The notes under the pieces are model-generated. The model was not told the DNA's origin. It made no database searches and saw only the letters and a list, made by a program, of their open reading frames with translations. This document shows positions 37,261-47,380 of a stretch of DNA of 59,173 nt, one piece after another. How positions within the stretch are numbered: the stretch's first letter is position 1; every line of letters starts with the position of its first letter. The position numbers were made by a program, and so were the translations under genes. This stretch comes from an uncultured Bdellovibrionales bacterium. GTDB lineage: Bacteria > Patescibacteriota > Minisyncoccia > Moranbacterales > DUUL01. The stretch lies in NCBI GenBank assembly GCA_964505305.1, contig CAZDHE010000002.1, positions 1-59,173 of the forward strand, in the 5' to 3' direction.

Positions 37261-37289
37261 ATTATATTCCACCAAGCTCCCCTTGTCAA
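37261..37289 (-). promoter_or_regulatory. Consensus sigma-70 promoter of the mraZ operon
   Basis: Minus strand TTGACA-17 nt-TATAAT (ttgaca aggggagcttggtggaa tataat). Confidence 0.85.
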
Positions 37290-37346
37290 ACATTTCCAAC
37301 CCTTTTTAGAATATCAAAAAAACGGCTTAAATAAGCCGTTTTAAAA
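37268..37346. repeat. 79-bp direct repeat copy A (terminator + -35 region), partner at 38420-38498
   Basis: 73/79 identical by manual alignment. Confidence 0.9.
37319..37342 (-). terminator. Intrinsic terminator hairpin
   Basis: aaaacggctta-aa-taagccgtttt perfect stem with T/A tails. Confidence 0.65.
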
Positions 37347-37576: not shown

Positions 37577-38251
37577 TTAAAGTTTTTCAACTTTTACTCC
37601 TGTAAACCTGCTTGGATCTTGGATAGATTTAATGAAGCCTGCATCGTATTTATTACTACTTAAATCAATATTACTAGCTTTTAATAATTCTTCTTTCTCC
37701 TCATCCGTCACCCATGTTTCTTCAAGAGGAATATTTTTTCTGGCCTTTGAAAAGAATATTTCCACCACTTCTCCATTATTTGTATTATATTCCACAGATA
37801 TTCCGTACCCATCTTTTTCAAAACGTTTTGTCCAAGTATCCGCCGAGTTCCCCTCAATTGCAGTCTCTGTTGGTTCGGGGTTATCATTAGTTGGCTCTCC
37901 ATACTGTTTAGTAAAATAAGAAATTTTTTTGTTTAATAGACTAGGCACATCAAAAACGATACTCTCTTCATTTTCTTCCCTGACAACCTTTTTATTGTCC
38001 TCCTGAACTTTTTCTACATTAATCTCCTCCTCAAATGAAGAATTAATAGCAAAAAGTAAAACCAATATGATTAAAGTTGATATAATTTTTATTGAATTAT
38101 TCCACTCTGTTTTCGCCCATATATACCAAATTAGAAAAAGGGGTAACAACAATATTACTAAAACCAAACCCCAACCAGAAGCATACCACTCTTTTTGTTT
38201 TTCACTCTTTTGATTTAACTCATTGTTTTTTTTATTGTTTGGTTTTTCCAT
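37577..38251 (-). CDS. Membrane-anchored protein, N-terminal paralog of 41461-42297
   Basis: KEWYASGWGLVLVILLLPLFLIWYIWAKTEWN versus KEWYQTGWGIVIAILFLPYFLVWYMWVKTNWN; C-terminal domains differ. Confidence 0.8.
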   Translation of the reverse strand: MEKPNNKKNNELNQKSEKQKEWYASGWGLVLVILLLPLFLIWYIWAKTEWNNSIKIISTLIILVLLFAINSSFEEEINVEKVQEDNKKVVREENEESIVFDVPSLLNKKISYFTKQYGEPTNDNPEPTETAIEGNSADTWTKRFEKDGYGISVEYNTNNGEVVEIFFSKARKNIPLEETWVTDEEKEELLKASNIDLSSNKYDAGFIKSIQDPSRFTGVKVEKL

Positions 38252-38419
38252 AATGCAAATTAATGATAATTTATTATAATTTTAAAAAAATACTAGACTA
38301 TTCGAAAATAAACATTATTTAACGAAACACCTTTCTGTCACCATTTGCAAAAACATTTAGAAAAAATGTCTATCATAAAAGTTGAATTCGCCATTTTTTT
38401 CTTCCTAATTTTAGGATAC

Positions 38420-38498
38420 TCCACCAAGCTCTCCTTGTCAAACATTTCCAACCCTTTTTAGAATATCTAAAAAACAGCTTAAAAAAGAAGTTTTAAAA
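38420..38498. repeat. 79-bp direct repeat copy B, abutting the tRNA-His 3' fragment
   Basis: tccaccaagctctccttgtcaaacatttccaaccctttttagaatatc...; terminator stem mutated; TTGACA-17-TATCCT retained on the minus strand. Confidence 0.9.
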
Positions 38499-40096
38499 TG
38501 GGCGACTAGAGGGGCTTGAACGATGACTTTCCTGTGAGCAGAGAATAAATCCTTAAAATCATCTCTTGGTTCAACGGCTACAACTTTCTTATTTTTTACC
38601 CAAATTCTTTTTATTGTCATTCTTATCCAGTCCCTTTTCTCTTCCTTAGAAAGTTCTTCTCTCCAGAATTTACCAAATTCTTTTAAAAATTTTTCGGTCT
38701 TTTTAATTCTTTGTTCTTGTTCTCTGGCAGTCATACTGCCTGTAACGCCTTTTCTTTCAAAGGATTCTATCTCTTCTTTTGCTTTTTGCATTTTATAAAG
38801 ATATTCGTTTTCTGGTATATGGCCATTTTCAAACATTACTTTCAATCTTTTTTTTCGAGATAAAATATTATGAATCTCTTCATCTGTTTTTTGATTTTTT
38901 GCGTTTTTCTTAAAAAGCTCTCTAAGACTTTCCAGTGTTAATTTTATAACATCCTCTGGCAATTTCATGCCACTCATAAACTGAAAAATTTGTTTATCAA
39001 TAATTTCGCATTCCACCTTAGGTTGCTTACAACTTTTATTCTCTTTCGCAAATTTGCAGGTATAAAAATAATTTTCTTTTCCCGTTTTATTGTTTCTGTG
39101 ATATTCACAATACATTGAGGGATGCATTCTTCTTAAACTACTCTTCTCGTTTCCTTTTAAATGTTTTATGCAATTATAACAATAAACTAAGCCTTGAAGA
39201 AGATAAAAACGATGTTTGGCAACTGGTCTCCCAAACTTTCCCTTTCTCTCCGCTAAAACATCTTGACATTTATCAAAAAGCTTTTTTGAAATGATTGGCT
39301 TATGAACAGTGCTCTTGATATCTGGCAATGGTTTCCTGGGAGACCAAACTAACCCTAGATAAGATTTATTTGGAATAATACATTTGACTGATGAGAAGGT
39401 GAAAGGATTTCCCATTCTTGTTTTATACCCTTCTTTCGTTAATATTTCAGCTATTTTTTGGATAGAGTAATTGCCGGAAGCATACATCTTAAAAATTCTT
39501 CTCACTATCTCTGCTTCCTTTTTATCTATGTGCCATTCTTTTGAATACAAGGGGCGATTTCTTTCATTATCCCACCCAAGCTTTTTTCTTTTATAACCAA
39601 GTGGCAAATTTCCCCCTATTGGTTTCCCTGAGCTTCTTTTTTGCATTAAAGCGCTTTTCACCCAAAAACCAAGCTGTCTTGAATAATATTCATCAAATAA
39701 TTCATTTATTCCCTCATTAAGGAAAGCGGACGGATCATTGAAATCTCCAAAATTCTGAGTTGTTGAAATCACATCAATTCCCTGTTTTTTTCTCAGTAAA
39801 TTTTTGTATTGCCTGGCCTCCTCGACATTTCTTGCAAATCTGGAAGTGTGAAAAACAATAATAACCTCAAACTTTTTTTGCATCGCATCTTCAATCATTA
39901 CCTGAAAATTGTCTCTTTTTGAGGCTATTTTTCCAGAAATTAGGTCTTTGTATATATGCTGGATTTCTATATTGTTTTTCTTGGCATATTCCCTTATTGC
40001 CCTTTCTTGGGCTTGAGGAGAAAACCCCTTGTCTTGCTATTCCGTGCTTTCTCTTATATAGCCAACGCCAATATTTTTTATCTTTTCATCTTTCAT
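38438..40096 (-). pseudogene. Large serine recombinase interrupted by in-frame TAG at codon 20 (40037-40039)
   Basis: MKDEKIKNIGVGYIRESTE*QDKGFSPQAQERAI... continues in frame into ORF 38438-39898 (VFHTSRFARN, GGNLPLGY recombinase domain, LLQGLVYCYNC zinc ribbon, coiled coil). Confidence 0.88.
38501..38513 (-). pseudogene. 3' fragment of host tRNA-His (T-stem 3' strand + acceptor + C73), left junction
   Basis: Minus strand CCCTC-TAGTCGC-C pairs exactly with GAGGG and GGCGACTA of the 5' fragment at 47197-47258. Confidence 0.88.
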
Positions 40097-40221
40097 TTTG
40101 AGGATTTATTAAATAGACTATCTTAATGAAAAAATTTTTAATTAAGATGTGAAGTGTGAAATTCATCAAAAAATCAATAAACATCGCCCTTTGGGGTGAT
40201 TAATCTTGTTTTATTGCTTTA

Positions 40222-40647
40222 TTATAAACCAAGAATCGATTTTTTCTTGGCCTGGAATTCTTCTTCGCTGATAATTTCTTGATCTCTTAGGTCAGCTAGT
40301 TTTTTAATCTCATCAGCGTAATTATTTGTAGATTGTGGTTTTGTTTCATTCGCAACATCTGCTATTTTTTGATCAATTAATTCCTTGGCTTTATCTGCCT
40401 CTTTTTTATTAACAGCTTTAATAATTAAATTTCCGCTTCCTCCCTTATTAACTATTTCAATATCAGCAGTTAAGAAACCTCTTGTAATATTTATTTGAGC
40501 GATATTTTGGTAAAGTAGGTGCATTTTTACCCTTTTCCCTACAACCAATCCTTCTCCATAAACCCCATCCTCCAAAACTTGTAATTCTTGCTTCCAAGTG
40601 TTTGATAATAGTTTACTTCCTTTTACTGTCATTAAAATCTTTGCCAT
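40222..40647 (-). CDS. PH-like domain + C-terminal SHOCT domain protein
   Basis: C-terminal ADEIKKLADLRDQEIISEEEFQAKKKSIL is a SHOCT-type motif. Confidence 0.8.
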   Translation of the reverse strand: MAKILMTVKGSKLLSNTWKQELQVLEDGVYGEGLVVGKRVKMHLLYQNIAQINITRGFLTADIEIVNKGGSGNLIIKAVNKKEADKAKELIDQKIADVANETKPQSTNNYADEIKKLADLRDQEIISEEEFQAKKKSILGL

Positions 40648-40673
40648 ATTTTTTATTAATTGTTAATTTAAAA

Positions 40674-41441
40674 CTAGTTATTTATAATAAGGTTTCTTTT
40701 TATCTCATTAAAGCATTCACTTGGGCTTCTTGGGGGATTTATCGCCTTTTTTTCTTTTTCTGCAAATTTATTATATATTTCTTCAATTTTTTTCTTCTTC
40801 AAATCCAATTTTTTAATAATTTTTTCTATTCTTTCAATTACTCCTGGAGCTAGAAAAGAAAATTCTTGATCAAAGGGCTTCATAATATCATCTTCTAATT
40901 TTACTACGTTCTCAGAATCGTCCAAGGGCATGTTTTGGGGTCCATTCAAATCTAGGTAACATACAGCCAAATAAAAGCCTAAAGCATACTCCAATTTGTT
41001 CTGCCTTCTAAGCATTTCCCCCATCTGAAATCTTGTGTTTCTATATAGTCCCCATTGATGTTTTTTTGCATAATTCAAAATGTCCTCATTCAACAAGCTC
41101 CATTGAACATCAAAATCTGAAATTTTATTTTTGCTTTCTGATTTATTTAATAATTTCTCTTTTCTTTTTCGATACCTTTCCTTTTCTACTAAGTAAGCCT
41201 CTTGTGTACCATTTTTAATTCGCCATTCTTCATCAATTTTATCTGCTTCGCTTTTTGTCACAGTTAACCTGACACCTCTTGTGTTGGTGCGAACATAAAT
41301 ATAGTTATCACAACTTGAGCATTTTGTTTTAGCGCCAGGTTTCTTCTCTAAACATTTCCCACAGTAAGGACACTCAGCTTTTCGCTGATCTTTGCCCCTT
41401 TTTTTAATATTTATGAAATTAAATATTTTCACAATAATCAA
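40674..41441 (-). CDS. Zinc-ribbon (CPYC...CSSC) helical protein of unknown function
   Basis: ECPYCGKCL...TKCSSCDNYIYVR, WGLYRNTRFQM, VCYLDLNGP. Confidence 0.7.
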   Translation of the reverse strand: MIIVKIFNFINIKKRGKDQRKAECPYCGKCLEKKPGAKTKCSSCDNYIYVRTNTRGVRLTVTKSEADKIDEEWRIKNGTQEAYLVEKERYRKRKEKLLNKSESKNKISDFDVQWSLLNEDILNYAKKHQWGLYRNTRFQMGEMLRRQNKLEYALGFYLAVCYLDLNGPQNMPLDDSENVVKLEDDIMKPFDQEFSFLAPGVIERIEKIIKKLDLKKKKIEEIYNKFAEKEKKAINPPRSPSECFNEIKRNLIINN

Positions 41442-41460
41442 TCTGTTTTAATGATTGAGC

Positions 41461-42297
41461 TTATTTAATCGCAGGATGTTCTTGATAGAAGGCTGCCACT
41501 TTTTCCAGATTTTCTCTCAAGAAATTATCCCAATTTATCTCTTTTATATCTTCACTTTTTAAAGAAACTGTTAAAACATTCTCACTAGACTCATTCCCTT
41601 TCACATCAACCAATGGCAGTTCAGCTACTATAGTTACCCGACGGAAATTGTCCAATATTTGATTATTTAAATTGGAAAACACATTTACCATGTCAGTTTT
41701 AATACCACCTGCTGTCATGCCGGAAGTAAAATTTTCGCTAGCACGAAATTTAATCCACAATTCATTCCTCTCTGTTTTTATTGAAATAACAGTTTTTTTA
41801 TCCATATTGTTCTTTTCTCCGATTTGGTTAACGACAACTGTCTCTGCATCTCGTAAAAGAGTGTCCTTTTTTGTTTCCCACTGATAGTTACTCTTTTTTT
41901 CATCTTCTTTCTTATCTGAGGAATCTTCTTCCGTTTTAGTATCCCCAACTTGTTCCTTTTCTTGATTAGTTGCCACATCATTTTGAGGTGGTTCACTATC
42001 ACTATCTAAAACAGCTATGTTTACGATTACAAATATAATTGTAATCGCAATTTTTAATTTCTTATTCCAATTTGTTTTTACCCACATATACCATACTAAA
42101 AAATATGGCAAAAATAAGATGGCAATAACTATGCCCCACCCTGTTTGATACCATTCTTTTTTTTGGCTTTTTTGTGCCTCGCCACTAGGCATTTGTTGAT
42201 CATTCATTTTTTTAAATAAATTGTTAACTAGAATTTTATCGTCCATAGGTACACAAAAGGCCCCACGAATCGACGACAGTCCTTTCGGAATGCCCAA
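41461..42297 (-). CDS. Membrane-anchored secreted-domain protein (start probably 42247 or 42207)
   Basis: Two TM helices shared with 37577-38251, acidic linker, C-terminal globular domain. Confidence 0.75.
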   Translation of the reverse strand: MGIPKGLSSIRGAFCVPMDDKILVNNLFKKMNDQQMPSGEAQKSQKKEWYQTGWGIVIAILFLPYFLVWYMWVKTNWNKKLKIAITIIFVIVNIAVLDSDSEPPQNDVATNQEKEQVGDTKTEEDSSDKKEDEKKSNYQWETKKDTLLRDAETVVVNQIGEKNNMDKKTVISIKTERNELWIKFRASENFTSGMTAGGIKTDMVNVFSNLNNQILDNFRRVTIVAELPLVDVKGNESSENVLTVSLKSEDIKEINWDNFLRENLEKVAAFYQEHPAIK

Positions 42298-42299
42298 TG

Positions 42300-42400
42300 T
42301 CCTTTCAGATCATTGACCTAGCTAACAAGTGTCGACCGCGAGGCCGTCTCTGTTAGCTAGGATTTGATGCCATGCCCACGCAAAAAGCATGAGTTTAGGC
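42300..42400 (-). ncRNA. Candidate structured 5' leader/ncRNA
   Basis: Perfect cctagctaaca/tgttagctagg stem (about 42317-42361) in a GC-rich intergenic patch with GAAA-loop hairpins nearby. Confidence 0.35.
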
Positions 42401-42653
42401 TTTTTTCTATCTTTATTTTAAACCCTTATGGCTAAAAGATCAAGGTTTTAAAAAATTAACAACCTAAACATTGGAAATATTTTTACCCCCCCCTGAAAAT
42501 TATTAACCATTAGATTATTTAGCCGCTCAATGTGTGTAAAAATTTACACACATAATGGCGTAATACTATATTGATATTTCACAAGAACATTCATAATTTT
42601 TCCATATTTTATTAATATAATTCAATCTTGATAAATTTTTATGCAACAAAGAT

Positions 42654-42685
42654 AAGCAAAAGGCGACTGCGGTTGCCTTTTGCTT
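42654..42685 (-). terminator. Intrinsic terminator after the DUF4352-like gene
   Basis: aagcaaaaggcg ... tgccttttgctt stem. Confidence 0.7.
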
Positions 42686-42701
42686 TAAGATTCAAGATGT
42701 T

Positions 42702-43250
42702 TTAGTACAGCTGAATTTCAACATTGTCGCTACTCCAAAAGTCAGGAGTAAATTGTAATTTAAATTTCTCTGAATCTTCAGGCGTTTCAAATGTAACCCA
42801 CCCTCTAACTTTTCCACCAGGATTAAGTGTTCCAGAACTCAGTTCAGGTTCTTTATCTTCCGTCATGCCTTGGTCGAAACTATAACCTTCGCTGTCATAA
42901 AGTTTCCAATCGAAAGGATTGTAGCTTAGTGATTTATCAGAGGTATTGTTCTCGTATTTAACTTCTATAGCCACAAGCTTATTCCCCGCTTCCGGTTGCA
43001 TAAACTCGTTTTTCGCTTTGAACGGGTCTTCCATGTCCGTTACTGTCACTGCATAGTCGCCAAGTTTTATATCCTCGCCCAATTTGAACGTTTTTTGGGC
43101 TTCTTTTTTTTCTTCTTGGGAGGATTTTTTGGATGAAGAGTCATCAACCTTTTCTGGTTGTGTTCCTTGAGGCACACCCGAAGAACCTGTGCATCCTGCC
43201 AGGAAAACAAGTGCAATAAAAAATGCAGACAAAGTTAATGCCTTTTTCAT
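42702..43250 (-). CDS. DUF4352-like lipoprotein
   Basis: Lipobox FLAGC; FKLGE, VAIEVKYENN, FDWKLYDSEGYSF, GTLNPGGKVRGWVTFETP. Confidence 0.85.
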   Translation of the reverse strand: MKKALTLSAFFIALVFLAGCTGSSGVPQGTQPEKVDDSSSKKSSQEEKKEAQKTFKLGEDIKLGDYAVTVTDMEDPFKAKNEFMQPEAGNKLVAIEVKYENNTSDKSLSYNPFDWKLYDSEGYSFDQGMTEDKEPELSSGTLNPGGKVRGWVTFETPEDSEKFKLQFTPDFWSSDNVEIQLY

Positions 43251-43296
43251 ATTATCACCCCCTTTCCACGAAAATTTATTTGCATTAGATGATTAA

Positions 43297-43464
43297 TTAA
43301 TTTAATCTTTCACGTAAATTTTGAGACTCTTGTTGCAACCTCTCACCTCTTTTCTCCATTTTATCTAATTTTTTATCATTTTGCCATATTCTAAACACTC
43401 CAAACAAAAATATCGCAAGCACAACAGAAACAATAACAAGAGCTAACCTGCTAGGTTTTTTCAT
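43297..43464 (-). CDS. 55-aa single-TM + coiled-coil peptide (not in ORF track)
   Basis: Manual translation MKKPSRLALVIVSVVLAIFLFGVFRIWQNDKKLDKMEKRGERLQQESQNLRERLN. Confidence 0.7.
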   Translation of the reverse strand: MKKPSRLALVIVSVVLAIFLFGVFRIWQNDKKLDKMEKRGERLQQESQNLRERLN

Positions 43465-43539
43465 TATTTTTTATTAAAGTTTAAGGTAACCAACTAATTT
43501 CTTTTTTTGACTGAGGAAACAAAAAAGGACAGCCGAGCC

Positions 43540-43652
43540 GTTCACCCACAACAAACTTCGCGAGGAAGTCCAATTATGGAACTCGACTGCCCATTACTAT
43601 CCACAATCGGATAAATAGGCAGTGCCTCGCGAAATCTGAGTTGTAGGTGAAC
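43540..43652 (-). ncRNA. Long multi-stem hairpin starting at a predicted transcription start
   Basis: GTTCACCTACAAC/GTTGTGGGTGAAC, TTCGCGAGG/CCTCGCGAA, ACTGCC/GGCAGT and TATCC/GGATA stems; TATAAT 6 nt upstream (43659-43664). Confidence 0.5.
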
Positions 43653-43843
43653 ATTTAAATTATAACAAAATATATAAAAAAAGCAAAAACAAGAAATTTA
43701 TAAAATGAAAAGGCTTCGTTCTTAATAAACACAAAGTTAGATAAAAAACTGTGATCTTCTTTTTGTCCAACTTATTAGACACATTTTCACGTAATACTTA
43801 AAAAACAAGAGGCATATCAAAATATGTCTTTTTAATAGTGTAA

Positions 43844-44998
43844 TTATAATAACTTTGTTTGCCCAAAAGGCTTCAAAGCAAATTCGGATAAAAAATAATT
43901 ATGTATTTTACTAGCCGTTAAGTTGTTTAATGATGCAAAGTTTATCTGTTTTGCTATTTTATTAATTTCATTTATATGGTTGTAATATGTTTGTCGGCTC
44001 TTGTAGTTATTAAATGAATATTCCTTAAATCCTTTCACCCCGCCTTTTGACTGAATTTTTTCAATAGCATATTTCGCAAGCATCCTTTTATCAATGCGTT
44101 TTATATTTTTATCTAATATTGCTTCTACTAATGGAGAGTTTGAGCTACTTAAAAAAATGAAGTCTTGTAGAGGGTGAACGAAAATTCTTTTAACTTCTTT
44201 TTTTAATAATTCTTTCCAGATTTCATTCTTGAAGATATTTTCAATAGTTACTTCATTGCAATTATAGAGCTTAAGTCTACTCTTAATCGTGCTTTTTCTC
44301 TTCAATGTCAACTCTACTCTTATTAATTCGCATAATAACACCTTATTTTTCTTGTATCTCTCGTTGCTCAAAGATTTAATGACATTCTTTTCCTTTGGAG
44401 TAATTGCATTTGATTTTAACTCCTGTAACTTTGAATAAACCTTAAAAGTCGAAGATTTTGTACTGTAGTATAGCTCAGCTCCTCCGTCTCGGGGCTTTAT
44501 AATATAGCAACTGGATCTAAAACGATCATCAAATTTTGACAATGTATCTATAACTTGTTCACAGCTACAAATTTCTGTGAAGTCTATATTTTTACTAAAA
44601 GCCACCAAGGAAGGTTCGGCATCAAGAATTTCTTTCGAAAAAATCTTTCTTGTACCAATGTCATTTTCTAAGAAAGATTGCATCTTTTCAACAAACGGCA
44701 ACAAGTCACTATCTCGTGGAATTGCAATATTATGACCATATAGAAATTTTGGAACTGAAACTTCTATAAACAATTTTTTGTTTTGAGGATTTAAAAAGTC
44801 TTCTTGAAACCATATTTTTGGTGTATATATTCCTCTCTTTTTCCTCTCTTTTCTCCAGTTATTTGCTGTATAGACATATCTAGAGCTTCCTTTGTCAACA
44901 GGGCTATTTATTAATTCTTTATACTTAATTTTTTCTGAAAAAAATTCCTGGGCTTTTCTATCAAACTTTATATTTAATGCAAATTTCACAGTATCCAT
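43844..44998 (-). CDS. Putative rolling-circle replication initiator (Rep_trans / phage gpII-X-like)
   Basis: MDTVK start, IEVSVPKFLYGHN, ELYYSTKSSTFKVYSKLQE and IRVELTLK resemble motifs of this superfamily; recognition only. Confidence 0.55.
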   Translation of the reverse strand: MDTVKFALNIKFDRKAQEFFSEKIKYKELINSPVDKGSSRYVYTANNWRKERKKRGIYTPKIWFQEDFLNPQNKKLFIEVSVPKFLYGHNIAIPRDSDLLPFVEKMQSFLENDIGTRKIFSKEILDAEPSLVAFSKNIDFTEICSCEQVIDTLSKFDDRFRSSCYIIKPRDGGAELYYSTKSSTFKVYSKLQELKSNAITPKEKNVIKSLSNERYKKNKVLLCELIRVELTLKRKSTIKSRLKLYNCNEVTIENIFKNEIWKELLKKEVKRIFVHPLQDFIFLSSSNSPLVEAILDKNIKRIDKRMLAKYAIEKIQSKGGVKGFKEYSFNNYKSRQTYYNHINEINKIAKQINFASLNNLTASKIHNYFLSEFALKPFGQTKLL

Positions 44999-45019
44999 AG
45001 AGGAGTTTTGAAGAAGAAG

Positions 45020-45220
45020 CTAAGTCATTGCCCTAGGTTCTCGGGAAAACTCCTCAGAAAACCCTTTCCTAGGGCAATGGCTTTGCTCTTCCTTGGTTAA
45101 TGGATTATTTTCAAAGTGTCTGTTATTCCAAAATTCAAAGAAAAATCCGGCTAATTGTTCTGCAACCGCTTTATTTTGTTTATCAGTGATTTTTGGATTC
45201 TTATTATTAGTCATTTTCAA
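45020..45220 (-). CDS. Small hypothetical protein upstream of Rep
   Basis: 66-aa ORF in operon-like position; function unknown. Confidence 0.55.
   Translation of the reverse strand: MKMTNNKNPKITDKQNKAVAEQLAGFFFEFWNNRHFENNPLTKEEQSHCPRKGFSEEFSREPRAMT
45026..45079. repeat. Perfect 12-bp inverted repeat upstream of rep
   Basis: cattgccctagg (45026-45037) / cctagggcaatg (45068-45079). Confidence 0.8.
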
Positions 45221-45228
45221 TTAAAAAA

Positions 45229-45249
45229 ACTGCAAATTATATTTGCAGT
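45229..45249. promoter_or_regulatory. Palindromic operator candidate
   Basis: actgcaaat-tat-atttgcagt directly upstream of the small ORF/rep unit. Confidence 0.5.
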
Positions 45250-45292
45250 CTAAGATAATTAAAAATAACGTGATATTACCAATAAAGAATCC

Positions 45293-46054
45293 TTATATGT
45301 CAGTGATTCGTTTTTTAATTCTGTTCAGGATTATACCGATATCATCGTATAATAATGCTTTCCCTTTAAATTCTTCATTTATCTTTTTTGCTATCTCAGA
45401 ATAAGACAGTCCCTTTTCTCGTAAATCATAAATTCTTAAATCCCTATTGAAGTTTGTTTTAGGTTTATTTCTTCCTTCTTTGTAATTCATCGTCCTTTTC
45501 TTATATCGTTTTATTAAAGGCCATACATTCTCTATATCCTTTATCGTTGTGTTACTAAAAACCTCTAAAAAGAGTCTGTAAGTTTTTTTATCTTCTTTAT
45601 CTCTTTCAAACCAAAATCCAACATTATCTCTTGGAATGTAAACTAATGTGTTGTTTGTAAGATATAGCATTACTGTTTTGTGGTAGTGCTGAGAAATGCT
45701 ATATTTTTTCATTATTTCATCAATTTCACTATAAAACTTATTTAAGGGTGTTTTCTGATCTAATTTTGTAAGTTTGCTTTTACAGCTATCATAGGTCTTG
45801 TAATCCTTGCTCTTTTTTGCTTGTTCAATCTTTTTAAGCAGAGTTCTTCTATTGTCATTATAATCTTTACTTGCTATAAACTTATCAGTTTCCCTTCCGA
45901 GCCAATGCCACCATCCCTCTACTTCTTCATCCTTCAAGCCCTCATCTCCAATAAGCCATTTTTTACGAAAAGAGAGCGCTTCGTCTTGGAAGGATTTTTT
46001 TCTTATCAACAATTCAAATTTTTGCCTATTAAAACTCGAGGAATTATTTTTCAT
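45293..46054 (-). CDS. Protein with C-terminal helix-turn-helix (element regulator candidate)
   Basis: RDLRIYDLREKGLSYSEIAKKINEEF...IGIILNRIKKRI. Confidence 0.65.
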   Translation of the reverse strand: MKNNSSSFNRQKFELLIRKKSFQDEALSFRKKWLIGDEGLKDEEVEGWWHWLGRETDKFIASKDYNDNRRTLLKKIEQAKKSKDYKTYDSCKSKLTKLDQKTPLNKFYSEIDEIMKKYSISQHYHKTVMLYLTNNTLVYIPRDNVGFWFERDKEDKKTYRLFLEVFSNTTIKDIENVWPLIKRYKKRTMNYKEGRNKPKTNFNRDLRIYDLREKGLSYSEIAKKINEEFKGKALLYDDIGIILNRIKKRITDI

Positions 46055-46117
46055 TTTTTTAAATATTTACTAAAAAAGAACTGCAAAAACAGTTCTTTAA
46101 GCTGAAATCTGCAGAGG

Positions 46118-46189
46118 GGCGAGTAAAGGGAATTGAACCCTTATGTCCGGTGCCACAAACCGGTGTTCTACCATTGAACTATACTCGCC
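46118..46189 (-). tRNA. tRNA-His(GTG), intact, element-borne
   Basis: G-1:C73, GCGAGTA/TACTCGC acceptor, CCGGT-TTGTGGC-ACCGG anticodon arm, AAGGG-TTCAATT-CCCTT T-arm. Confidence 0.95.
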
Positions 46190-46256
46190 CCACTATAGAC
46201 TTCCACGAGATAATTAACGAAAATTAAAGATAAATTATATCATATAAACAATTATA

Positions 46257-47066
46257 TTACAATAGTTTGTTGTAATCATACTGAACATCTTTTGGTGCAA
46301 ATATAATGCCAAAGCCATTTACCCTCCCTCCCTTATTGTCTCTAATGTTATCTTTAATAACGTCATAATATTTCTTATTATCTTTTTTAAAATATTCTCT
46401 TACTGCTCCAGTTGTGAAATCCGCTACTTGCAAGAGTTCGCAATATTTAGCATGAGTGTAAAATAAAGTCTCACGCAAACAATGTCTTAACTCAATTTTT
46501 TTCCAATCCTTTCCTTCAATGTATATATCTTCAAAATCATCACTATACATATGACCTTTTTTCCATAAATCGTTATAAGTTTTTGCAAGATTCACCTTTT
46601 TTTTAGGTCCAAGATAATCTATTATCATTTGTCCATGAGGATAATATCCTTGTTTTGTTGCATTAAAACCAACTTTCCCTGACAAGAAAAAAACAAATCT
46701 TTCAGCTAACCTAGAAAGTGCGAAACACTGAGAATTCCAATAATTATCATCGTTTCTTATTACTGAACAAATTATTGTTGTTTCATATTCCTTCAATAGA
46801 TTAAGAACTTCTTCTCGCAATTTGTTTCTTTTAGCAGGAGGGAGGGCATATTGTTCAGGACATTCTCTTTTTGTTGGAGACCATTTTATATAAGCATCTT
46901 CATTTCCTAATATATCCTGTTTTATTTTTTTTAATTCAAGTTGAAAATTTGCCTCCCTCATTCCATTTTTTATAATAAATCCGCCTAGATAACAAGGATT
47001 CTCATTGGTTCCAGAATCATCTAGATAAAAAACAAATCTTTCAGGCACTTTATTTTCAGTCAACAT
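46257..47066 (-). CDS. DUF3800-like (RNase H-like fold) protein
   Basis: FYLDDSG N-terminal motif and LLQVADF C-terminal motif. Confidence 0.75.
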   Translation of the reverse strand: MLTENKVPERFVFYLDDSGTNENPCYLGGFIIKNGMREANFQLELKKIKQDILGNEDAYIKWSPTKRECPEQYALPPAKRNKLREEVLNLLKEYETTIICSVIRNDDNYWNSQCFALSRLAERFVFFLSGKVGFNATKQGYYPHGQMIIDYLGPKKKVNLAKTYNDLWKKGHMYSDDFEDIYIEGKDWKKIELRHCLRETLFYTHAKYCELLQVADFTTGAVREYFKKDNKKYYDVIKDNIRDNKGGRVNGFGIIFAPKDVQYDYNKLL

Positions 47067-47196
47067 TATAAAATTACAATTTAGTATGTAAAATCATTTC
47101 AACGCAGAATTATGAGATTGATGCACCTTATAATGATCACATCCCAATAATTTTATTCTTTTCCATATCTTGTAGCTAGGAAAGTCATTGTCTTGG

Positions 47197-47258
47197 GGGA
47201 ATTGAACCCTCATATCCGGTGCCACAAACCGGTGTTCTACCATTGAACTATAGTCGCC
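47197..47258 (-). pseudogene. 5' fragment of host tRNA-His(GTG), right junction
   Basis: GGCGACTATAGTTCAATGGTAGAACACCGGTTTGTGGCACCGGATATGAGGGTTCAATTCCC then diverges (CCAAGAC); no acceptor 3' strand locally. Confidence 0.9.
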
Positions 47259-47364
47259 ATATGTTTTTAATGTATCTCAAATCAATGCTTTTTCCTATAG
47301 TCAGCCCGGCATTCGCCGGGTTCTCAATTTTATTGCTAAATCAAAGATTTAGATAAAATTGGAA

Positions 47365-47380
47365 AACTATAGTCGCCATA
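47365..47380. repeat. 16-bp direct repeat of the tRNA-His 5' end
   Basis: aactatagtcgccata, identical to 47246-47261. Confidence 0.8.

Follow-up and report, generated by a model that had tools for sequence, protein, structure and literature searches.

A large serine recombinase element in a Patescibacteria genome that appears to split the host tRNA-His gene and to carry a replacement

Some phages break the tRNA gene into which they integrate and bring a tRNA of their own. In tRNA-dependent lysogeny, described by Guerrero-Bustamante & Hatfull (2024) for actinobacteriophages (Fionnbharth/K4, Cluster L), mycobacteriophage tyrosine integrases enter tRNA-Lys through a core of ~10 bp that does not rebuild the gene, and the phage's own tRNA-Lys is needed for survival of the lysogen; its authors predicted a wider occurrence of this mode of lysogeny (PMC10865867). 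Some of the HTVC019P-type pelagiphages of SAR11, reported in 2018, namely HTVC019P, HTVC025P, HTVC119P and HTVC200P, split tRNA-Cys or tRNA-Leu (bioRxiv 10.1101/410191). Here we analyze a stretch of 59,173 nt from a Patescibacteria metagenome-assembled genome (MAG; assembly GCA_964505305.1, contig CAZDHE010000002.1), hereafter the window, in which an element of about 8.7 kb (38514-47197) encoding a large serine recombinase (LSR) lies between the two parts of a tRNA-His gene and carries an intact tRNA-His. The best explanation of the locus as a whole, which we consider very probable, is that this LSR element splits the host tRNA-His and compensates with its own copy, and that the copy of the element in this genome is probably stuck in place.

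Comparison with the described systems shows where this locus stands. Like the element, these pelagiphages carry a whole tRNA, "likely used instead" of the split one, and have a host with a streamlined genome, but they are podoviruses with tyrosine (R-H-R-Y) integrases and 11-46 bp cores (bioRxiv 10.1101/410191). The likeness to tRNA-dependent lysogeny is that attB overlaps a host tRNA gene (an essential one in the phage case), the core is too short to rebuild that gene, and a tRNA is carried. However, the phages with tRNA-dependent lysogeny are full temperate phages of Actinobacteria that use tyrosine integrases and arm-type sites and enter tRNA-Lys and others, whereas the family described here uses an LSR and a 2-3 bp core in the T-arm of tRNA-His in a Patescibacteria host of ~1 Mb, and consists of Rep-bearing units of 5-18 kb with no virion genes detected, with attP in the 3' end of the LSR gene and the tRNA beside attP.

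Gene disruption by LSR elements is also known, as in the case of A118, which integrates in comK. SPbeta (recombinase SprA), which integrates in spsM, and Bxb1, which integrates in groEL1, likewise use an LSR with a 2-bp crossover and split a gene that is then restored by excision (PMC5499854). The targets of SPbeta, Bxb1 and A118 differ from ours, being protein genes that are dispensable or under developmental control, and these elements bring no replacement copy. Prochlorococcus tycheposons resemble the element in being small, cargo-carrying and replication-capable and in residing at tRNA genes, a minority of them using LSRs, but they have partial tRNA repeats beside a full-length host tRNA, and the accessible part of the report on them does not describe a compensating whole tRNA (bioRxiv 10.1101/2020.12.28.424599). 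The first-pass annotation of this DNA could not match the retention strategy that it proposed to a described CPR (candidate phyla radiation) element. The principle has in fact been published (PMC10865867; bioRxiv 10.1101/410191), but our literature search found no description of a serine integrase whose element both disrupts one tRNA and compensates with another, nor of such a system with a CPR host or with tRNA-His. The novelty lies in the class of recombinase, the phylum of the host, the tRNA concerned and the small, plasmid-like nature of the element.

The native tRNA-His(GTG) is present as a 5' part of 62 nt (47197-47258, minus strand) and a 3' end of 13 nt, separated by a gap of 8.7 kb. 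The 13-mer CCCTCTAGTCGCC (38501-38513, minus strand) has a single match in the window, against 0.01 expected by chance. When joined, the two pieces form a cloverleaf of 72-73 nt with an 8-bp acceptor helix including G-1:C73, which ARAGORN calls as tRNA-His(gtg); neither attL nor attR alone is called as a tRNA. The 5' stump and the joined tRNA are 100% identical over positions 1-62 (nhmmer, 69 bits). Within the window, ARAGORN finds four tRNAs. The only intact tRNA-His(gtg) among them occupies 46116-46188 (minus strand), and this internal gene is also the sole tRNA-His among the 40 tRNA genes of the whole assembly (994,510 bases in 57 contigs, 88% complete). A search of the assembly with an nhmmer tRNA-His profile gave no second intact tRNA-His, returning only the internal gene, the 5' stump and weak matches to other tRNAs. 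The first-pass description of a tRNA-His whose ends lie 8.7 kb apart, the halves enclosing an intact tRNA-His together with an LSR, a Rep-like gene and cargo, is thus borne out by domain, PHROGs and ARAGORN matches.

The split copy is the genus-native tRNA-His, judging by its identity to the single tRNA-His of two same-genus genomes (97% and 96%), compared with 93% between the internal copy and the joined tRNA; the internal copy is 96% identical to the tRNA-His of the same-genus genome G001. In G001, one BLAST alignment (99 nt, 93% identity) begins in the 5' part, crosses the joint and the 3' part and takes in 23 nt of trailer past 38501, and an M16-peptidase gene adjoins tRNA-His as it adjoins the 5' stump here (78% amino-acid identity). 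This alignment across the joint and trailer is the closest approach to an empty site among the relatives. Most of the 40 closest genomes have one tRNA-His match.

The attachment sites have the form that a serine recombinase would use, namely, a short CC core between inverted-repeat P arms. On the tRNA strand, attR reads AGGAAAGTCATCGTTCAAGC-CC-CTCTAGTCGCC and attL reads ...GGGTTCAATT-CC-CCCAAGACAATGACTTTCCT. The element-side arms are inverted relative to each other (AGGAAAGTCAT.GT), which gives an attP of 20+2+20 around a CC corresponding to tRNA positions 61-62. In the window and in five related elements (G279, G153, G161, L083 and G319), the identity between attL and attR is limited to (T)CC, and the arms, AAAGTCATyGsTCAA, are inverted. 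Because the core spans only 2-3 bp and the arms must be recombinase-binding sequences, the 11-nt tRNA 3' end is not rebuilt, and a whole tRNA is carried.

With an internal TAG codon read through, the LSR matches the Pfam domains Resolvase (PF00239, 86 bits, profile positions 2-144 of 145) and Recombinase (PF07508, 69 bits), along with Zn_ribbon_recom (PF13408) at 20.3 bits, under the 25.3 cut-off, with conserved Cys residues in the alignment; its nucleophile motif, YIRES17TE, fits Y-x-R-x-S. The LSR identity given in the first-pass annotation stands, but the open reading frame (ORF) listed there, from 39898, is an N-terminal truncation without the catalytic serine, the real gene starting at 40096. 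This start reads MKDEKIKNIGVGYIRESTE-TAG-QDKGF, so that the in-frame TAG (40037-40039), on which the first-pass annotation is silent, is codon 20 (YIRESTE*QDKG), three residues past the catalytic Ser. We read the TAG as a nonsense mutation because all 17 homologues checked have E or D at this codon; it would fit a single-base change from GAG and is presumably real rather than a sequencing error. Recoding of TAG was rejected, given the E or D of the homologues and the fact that the other element and host ORFs are all open under table 11. Thus, this copy of the element probably makes no LSR protein. At its 3' end, the gene continues across the att site and the tRNA fragment and finishes in host DNA, with the last ~24 codons host-encoded, which places attP inside the 3' end of the LSR gene. 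The TAG at codon 20 cuts the recombinase short ahead of most of its catalytic domain, and the inner P' arm strays from the family consensus; the element has therefore probably lost the ability to excise and is fixed in place.

The same arrangement recurs in a family of related elements. Searching 319 genomes of the same order identified four close LSR homologues (58-63% identity) in other families, in G153, G161, G279 and, as a pseudogene, G169. A further homologue was found by a genome contig search in the Patescibacteria MAG STD1_124 (G319), and thirteen more close homologues (42-75% identity) came from metagenome contigs. In all 17 close homologues examined, a tRNA-His fragment abuts the LSR gene. 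In 16 of the 17, the LSR 3' end carries the arm AAAGTCATyGsTCAAnn followed by CC and the last 11 nt of tRNA-His, the tRNA sequence varying by host. The remaining case (L076, 1999-2059) has the arm joined via GG, not CC, to the reverse complement of the tRNA-His 5' part, that is, the integration orientation is inverted, as would be expected from a flipped attP core dinucleotide. The other junction, consisting of the 5' 61-62 nt of tRNA-His, CC and nnTTGACCAAyGACTTT, is visible in L083, G319 and G279, as well as at a contig end in G153 and at a contig start in G161. In every element with both ends visible, a co-oriented intact tRNA-His lies just inside attL, and no complete element lacks the tRNA (Table 1); L142 also has an internal tRNA-His. 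The distance from attL to the tRNA is about 60 nt in G279 and L083, 1.5 kb in G319 and 1 kb in the window, where a DUF3800 gene intervenes. In G279 and G153, the element copy is the sole intact tRNA-His found, in assemblies that, along with that of the window, are 88-94% complete; the genomes of this analysis are MAGs with a completeness of 88-96%. The host tRNA array reconstructed from G279, Lys-Arg(tct)-His-Arg(tcg), is uninterrupted in G019 (contig C9) and G033. Co-occurrence of recombinase homologues with both a split and an internal tRNA-His is therefore not peculiar to the window but is found in G279, L083, G319 and G153.

Several loci of this family carry apparent marks of age. The G169 pseudogene (L066, G169:C38, 8910-10500) has two TAA codons and a frame break, and in the last 75 nt of L067 (G153:C9), the host 5' stump has gained an A that mismatches the 3' stump, both of which are signs of decay after long residence. 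On contig C37 of G019, a genome of the same family as that of the window, L154 (44-180, 1120-1260 and 1302-1374) shows two tandem attL-like scars and an intact tRNA-His with a host-type trailer, with no recombinase. Each scar consists of a tRNA-His 5' stump, in which the anticodon-arm region is swapped for the hairpin TCCCGCCTCGGCGGGA, and the P' arm CCTTGAACAATGACTTTCC. G019 also has the normal Lys-Arg-His-Arg array on C9. The C37 locus looks like the fossil of a deleted element.

The element tRNA of the window differs from the split native tRNA in two compensated stem pairs and one variable-loop base. A promoter-like site, TTGTAA-17-TATAAT, is located 45 nt upstream of it, as a consensus match only. 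Across the family, element tRNAs differ from the split tRNA of their own host by 0 to about 20%, and the stem differences in the window and in G279 are all compensated. The possibility that the element tRNA is recoded against self-targeting was rejected as a family-wide property, the L083 element tRNA being identical to that of its host. Compensation by the element tRNA is well supported, and we infer that the gene is expressed and essential.

Taken together, these observations outline a candidate mechanism. The LSR would recombine attP of the circular element with attB in the T-arm of the host's single tRNA-His, at CC; that this recombinase catalyzed the integration event is what we infer from the sites. 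After integration, attL would hold the first 62 nt of the tRNA gene as a 5' stump and attR the last 11 nt as a 3' stump, with no functional tRNA rebuilt, and the tRNA-His(GTG) of the element, located beside the P' arm and in the orientation of the host gene, would supply the cell as long as the element stays integrated. In the smaller members of the family, the tRNA, ~60 nt downstream of attL, might be read from the captured promoter of the host tRNA. For the copy in the window, excision has probably been lost, which would leave the host dependent on the element tRNA for good. The earlier proposal of integration without tRNA rebuilding, with a whole tRNA of the same isotype carried instead, is supported by the element gene being the sole intact tRNA-His in the assembly, likewise in G279 and G153.

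Several points weigh against this explanation. Element tRNAs are closer to the tRNA of their own host (79-100%) than to each other, a likeness pointing to capture from the local genome, to gene conversion by the neighboring stump or to a long shared residence; an outside origin of the tRNA is not proven case by case, the first two of these routes being equally possible. A second tRNA-His may sit in unassembled DNA, the assembly being 88% complete and without, for example, tRNA-Tyr. An error in sequencing or in the consensus, or else a minority allele, could account for the TAG in the LSR gene. Finally, the empty site anticipated in the first-pass annotation, an intact tRNA-His next to mraZ, is absent from all 40 relatives, in which the two genes never occupy neighboring coordinates. 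Even inside the genus, the genes upstream of mraZ and downstream of tRNA-His are scrambled in order, and only the M16-peptidase flank and the 23-nt trailer are kept, in G001.

Among the alternatives, the one that survives best is an addiction or retention module, in which the split and the spare mainly make loss of the element lethal, as an analogue of a toxin-antitoxin system without the toxin. We consider this unlikely as the main role, although the element tRNA is the sole intact tRNA-His in the source assembly (G000), G279 and G153, so that a deletion removing it without repair of the host gene should kill the cell. The G019:C37 locus, which keeps the attL scars and a tRNA with the rest of the element gone, fits selection on the tRNA alone, but the same scar shows that the remainder of an element can disappear. 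Furthermore, precise excision by the recombinase (attL x attR) would rebuild the host tRNA, leaving ordinary loss unpenalized, and in the studied analogue, the tRNA is needed for survival of the integrant, not for retention (PMC10865867). Because precise excision would restore the host gene, the toxin-free retention strategy proposed in the first-pass annotation is overstated, only imprecise deletions being penalized. Making integration survivable is a simpler role for the element tRNA and does not need the addiction reading.

It is a good deal less probable that the internal tRNA serves mainly as a fresh attB, as a supply at the time of replication or as a counter to tRNA-cleaving defenses, with the host keeping an unassembled tRNA-His. 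The 88% completeness of the assembly leaves room for such a gene, the L083 element tRNA, being identical to that of the host, is probably a usable attB, and the two tandem attL scars in G019:C37 and the tandem arrays of a sister clade (see below) fit serial integration. Conversely, most relatives have one tRNA-His match, three element-bearing genomes have no other intact copy, and the isotype of the carried tRNA always equals that of the disrupted gene. Less probable still, to the point of being hard to maintain, is a host with two tRNA-His genes of which the redundant one was struck, the internal tRNA being host DNA: in three cases, the internal tRNA does share 93-100% identity with the local tRNA of the host, but every complete element has its intact tRNA between the P' arm and the recombinase, inside the att-defined element, conserved element genes follow this tRNA, and most element-free relatives show one tRNA-His match. 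An assembly or binning artefact, that is, a chimeric contig joined at tRNA-His repeats, can be dismissed almost entirely, because even though the sequence comes from a MAG with a 62-nt repeat (95%) common to the two tRNA-His copies, and two other assemblies broke exactly there, both junctions carry unique inverted arms conserved in independent assemblies, and both flanks match G001 (70-78% amino-acid identity for the host genes on the M16-peptidase side and 86% for MraZ on the other).

A sister LSR clade (L084-L138), found in high-GC soil metagenomes at tRNA-Asp(GTC), indicates that the first-pass generalization that serine integrases do not restore tRNA genes applies to the present locus but is not general. 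These recombinases are 32-39% identical to those of the tRNA-His family and share the motif YIRESTExQDKGFSPQ, and they likewise enter at the start of the T-stem 3' strand. In contrast, their orientation is opposite, and the recombinase-proximal arm holds a 13-nt copy of the tRNA 3' end (CGGGAGCGACGGG), so that an intact tRNA-Asp is rebuilt and a spare tRNA is unneeded. Several tRNA-Asp loci contain 2-4 tandem repeats (for example, L087 at 1176 and 11432, and L093 at 831, 2197, 11439 and 13648), which suggests serial integrations.

Apart from the LSR and the tRNA, the element contains a replication gene and assorted cargo (Table 1), with every ORF between the stumps on the minus strand. The 384-aa Rep-like protein is a backbone component in common with the G279 element, and in L142, the homologue of the 253-aa protein likewise directly follows the internal tRNA-His. 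The DUF3800 gene is missing from the other elements compared. A gene directly beyond the element boundary (37577-38251) encodes a paralogue of the transmembrane region of the 278-aa protein (41461-42297), with 52% identity over 62 aa, and the element also encodes a 55-aa membrane peptide. No capsid, tail or terminase family was matched among the 10 ORFs by Pfam or PHROGs, which recognized only the replication protein and the integrase, leaving distant virion proteins possible. As to defense cargo, PADLOC gave just one weak LmuB-like match (E 4.5e-4). As part of the overall explanation and with the same high confidence, we regard the element as an integrated, plasmid-like mobile element in a Patescibacteria genome.

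Table 1. Features of the window, in order of position, and layout of related elements
Feature	Position or extent	Strand	Evidence or remarks
LSR gene, 552 codons	38438-40096	-	phrog_95 integrase, E 3e-88; Pfam domains
Native tRNA-His 3' end, host side of attR	38501-38513	-	T-stem 3' strand CCCTC, acceptor 3' strand TAGTCGC, discriminator C73; core CC 38512-38513
P arm of attP (AGGAAAGTCATCGTTCAAGC)	38514-38533	-	Within final LSR codons; inverted repeat of P' arm
SHOCT-domain protein, 141 aa	40222-40647	-	Pfam SHOCT, E 4e-8
Two proteins of unknown function, 255 aa and 278 aa	40674-42297	-	278-aa protein has a homologue in the L074 element
DUF4352 protein, 182 aa	42702-43250	-	Pfam DUF4352, E 2e-27; phrog_806
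Rep-like protein, 384 aa	43844-44998	-	phrog_702 "replication protein", E 2e-7; 40% identical homologue in L065
Two conserved backbone genes, 66 aa and 253 aa	45020-46054	-	Directly downstream of element tRNA; homologues in L065, L079 and L142 elements
Intact tRNA-His(GTG), G-1 and C73	46116-46189	-	ARAGORN 46116-46188; sole intact tRNA-His in assembly
DUF3800 protein, 269 aa	46257-47066	-	Pfam DUF3800, E 8e-10; between attL and element tRNA
P' arm of attP (CCCAAGACAATGACTTTCCT)	47178-47197	-	Outer half fits family; inner 6-8 nt off consensus (nCTTGAC/CTTGAAC)
Native tRNA-His 5' 61-62 nt, host side of attL	47198-47258	-	G-1 through first Cs of T-stem 3' strand; core CC 47198-47199
G279:C12, complete element	5.3 kb		attL - intact tRNA-His - Rep/cargo - LSR - attR
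L083 (metagenome), complete element	8.4 kb		attL - intact tRNA-His - Rep/cargo - LSR - attR
G319:C2, complete element	18.4 kb		attL - intact tRNA-His - Rep/cargo - LSR - attR
G153 element	Across two contig ends		Intact tRNA-His at broken contig end

The DNA around the element and the tRNA-His neighborhoods of relatives show further rearrangements. At a distance of 116 nt upstream of the 5' stump, 15 nt of the tRNA 5' end and leader (ATGGCGACTATAGTT) occur a second time (window 47259-47378); the G001-like upstream flank is carried by the distal copy of ATGGCGACTATAGTT, and the ~100 nt between the copies include the hairpin CCCGGCGAATGCCGGG, resembling an insert in G001. We rejected the idea that this 108-nt insert is a repeat akin to miniature inverted-repeat transposable elements, no other copy being present in the genome. 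On the other side, an 83-nt direct repeat (92% identical; 37264-37346 and 38416-38498) flanks the gene at 37577-38251, with one copy abutting the tRNA 3' stump; along with the paralogue, this repeat suggests that an earlier insertion or duplication took place in the interval from the tRNA to mraZ. In G001 (L021, G001:C2, 8600-8720, minus strand), a remnant of a tRNA-His 3' half (GCACCGGATATAAGGGTT ... CAATTCCCTCTAGTCTCCC), broken in the T-loop by a 56-nt insert containing a hairpin, is located 23 nt after the intact tRNA-His, which itself has the acceptor stem of the window's native tRNA and the T-stem of the window's element tRNA. In other lineages, tRNA-His lies within a Lys(ctt)-Arg(tct)-His-Arg(tcg) array. 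In the source genome, the 235 nt that separate Lys(ctt) from Arg(tcg) contain no His (contig C1:51402-51785), and tRNA-His adjoins the M16 peptidase in this genus, where it may have been relocated earlier.

More tentatively, and with rather more doubt than conviction, we consider the possibility that, in minimal CPR genomes, such elements are the driving force behind a permanent turnover of a tRNA gene that is essential and single-copy. In such a course, the native tRNA-His would be split, with the element copy coming to lie ~60 nt behind the captured native promoter; the recombinase would decay, as in the window and in G169, and the cargo would be lost, a foreign or converted tRNA staying as the sole tRNA-His; and attL scars would remain, as in G019:C37. 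If true, this scenario would explain the scrambled context of tRNA-His in relatives and the appearance of the G001 tRNA-His as a native/element chimera.

These findings extend the strategy of breaking an essential tRNA gene and bringing a spare beyond tyrosine-integrase phages, to an LSR lineage that would have arrived at it independently, in small elements resembling replicons in Patescibacteria, where each tRNA gene is typically single-copy. The sister clade meets the same problem by mimicking the tRNA 3' end. The family also offers serine integrases with a highly conserved natural attB, the T-arm of tRNA-His, and with attP, attL and attR defined by sequence from several hosts. For genome annotation, the implication is one of caution, in that the sole tRNA-His of such genomes can lie within a mobile element. 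For the evolution of these bacteria, the locus provides a concrete route by which a gene of a mobile element may replace an essential gene of the host.

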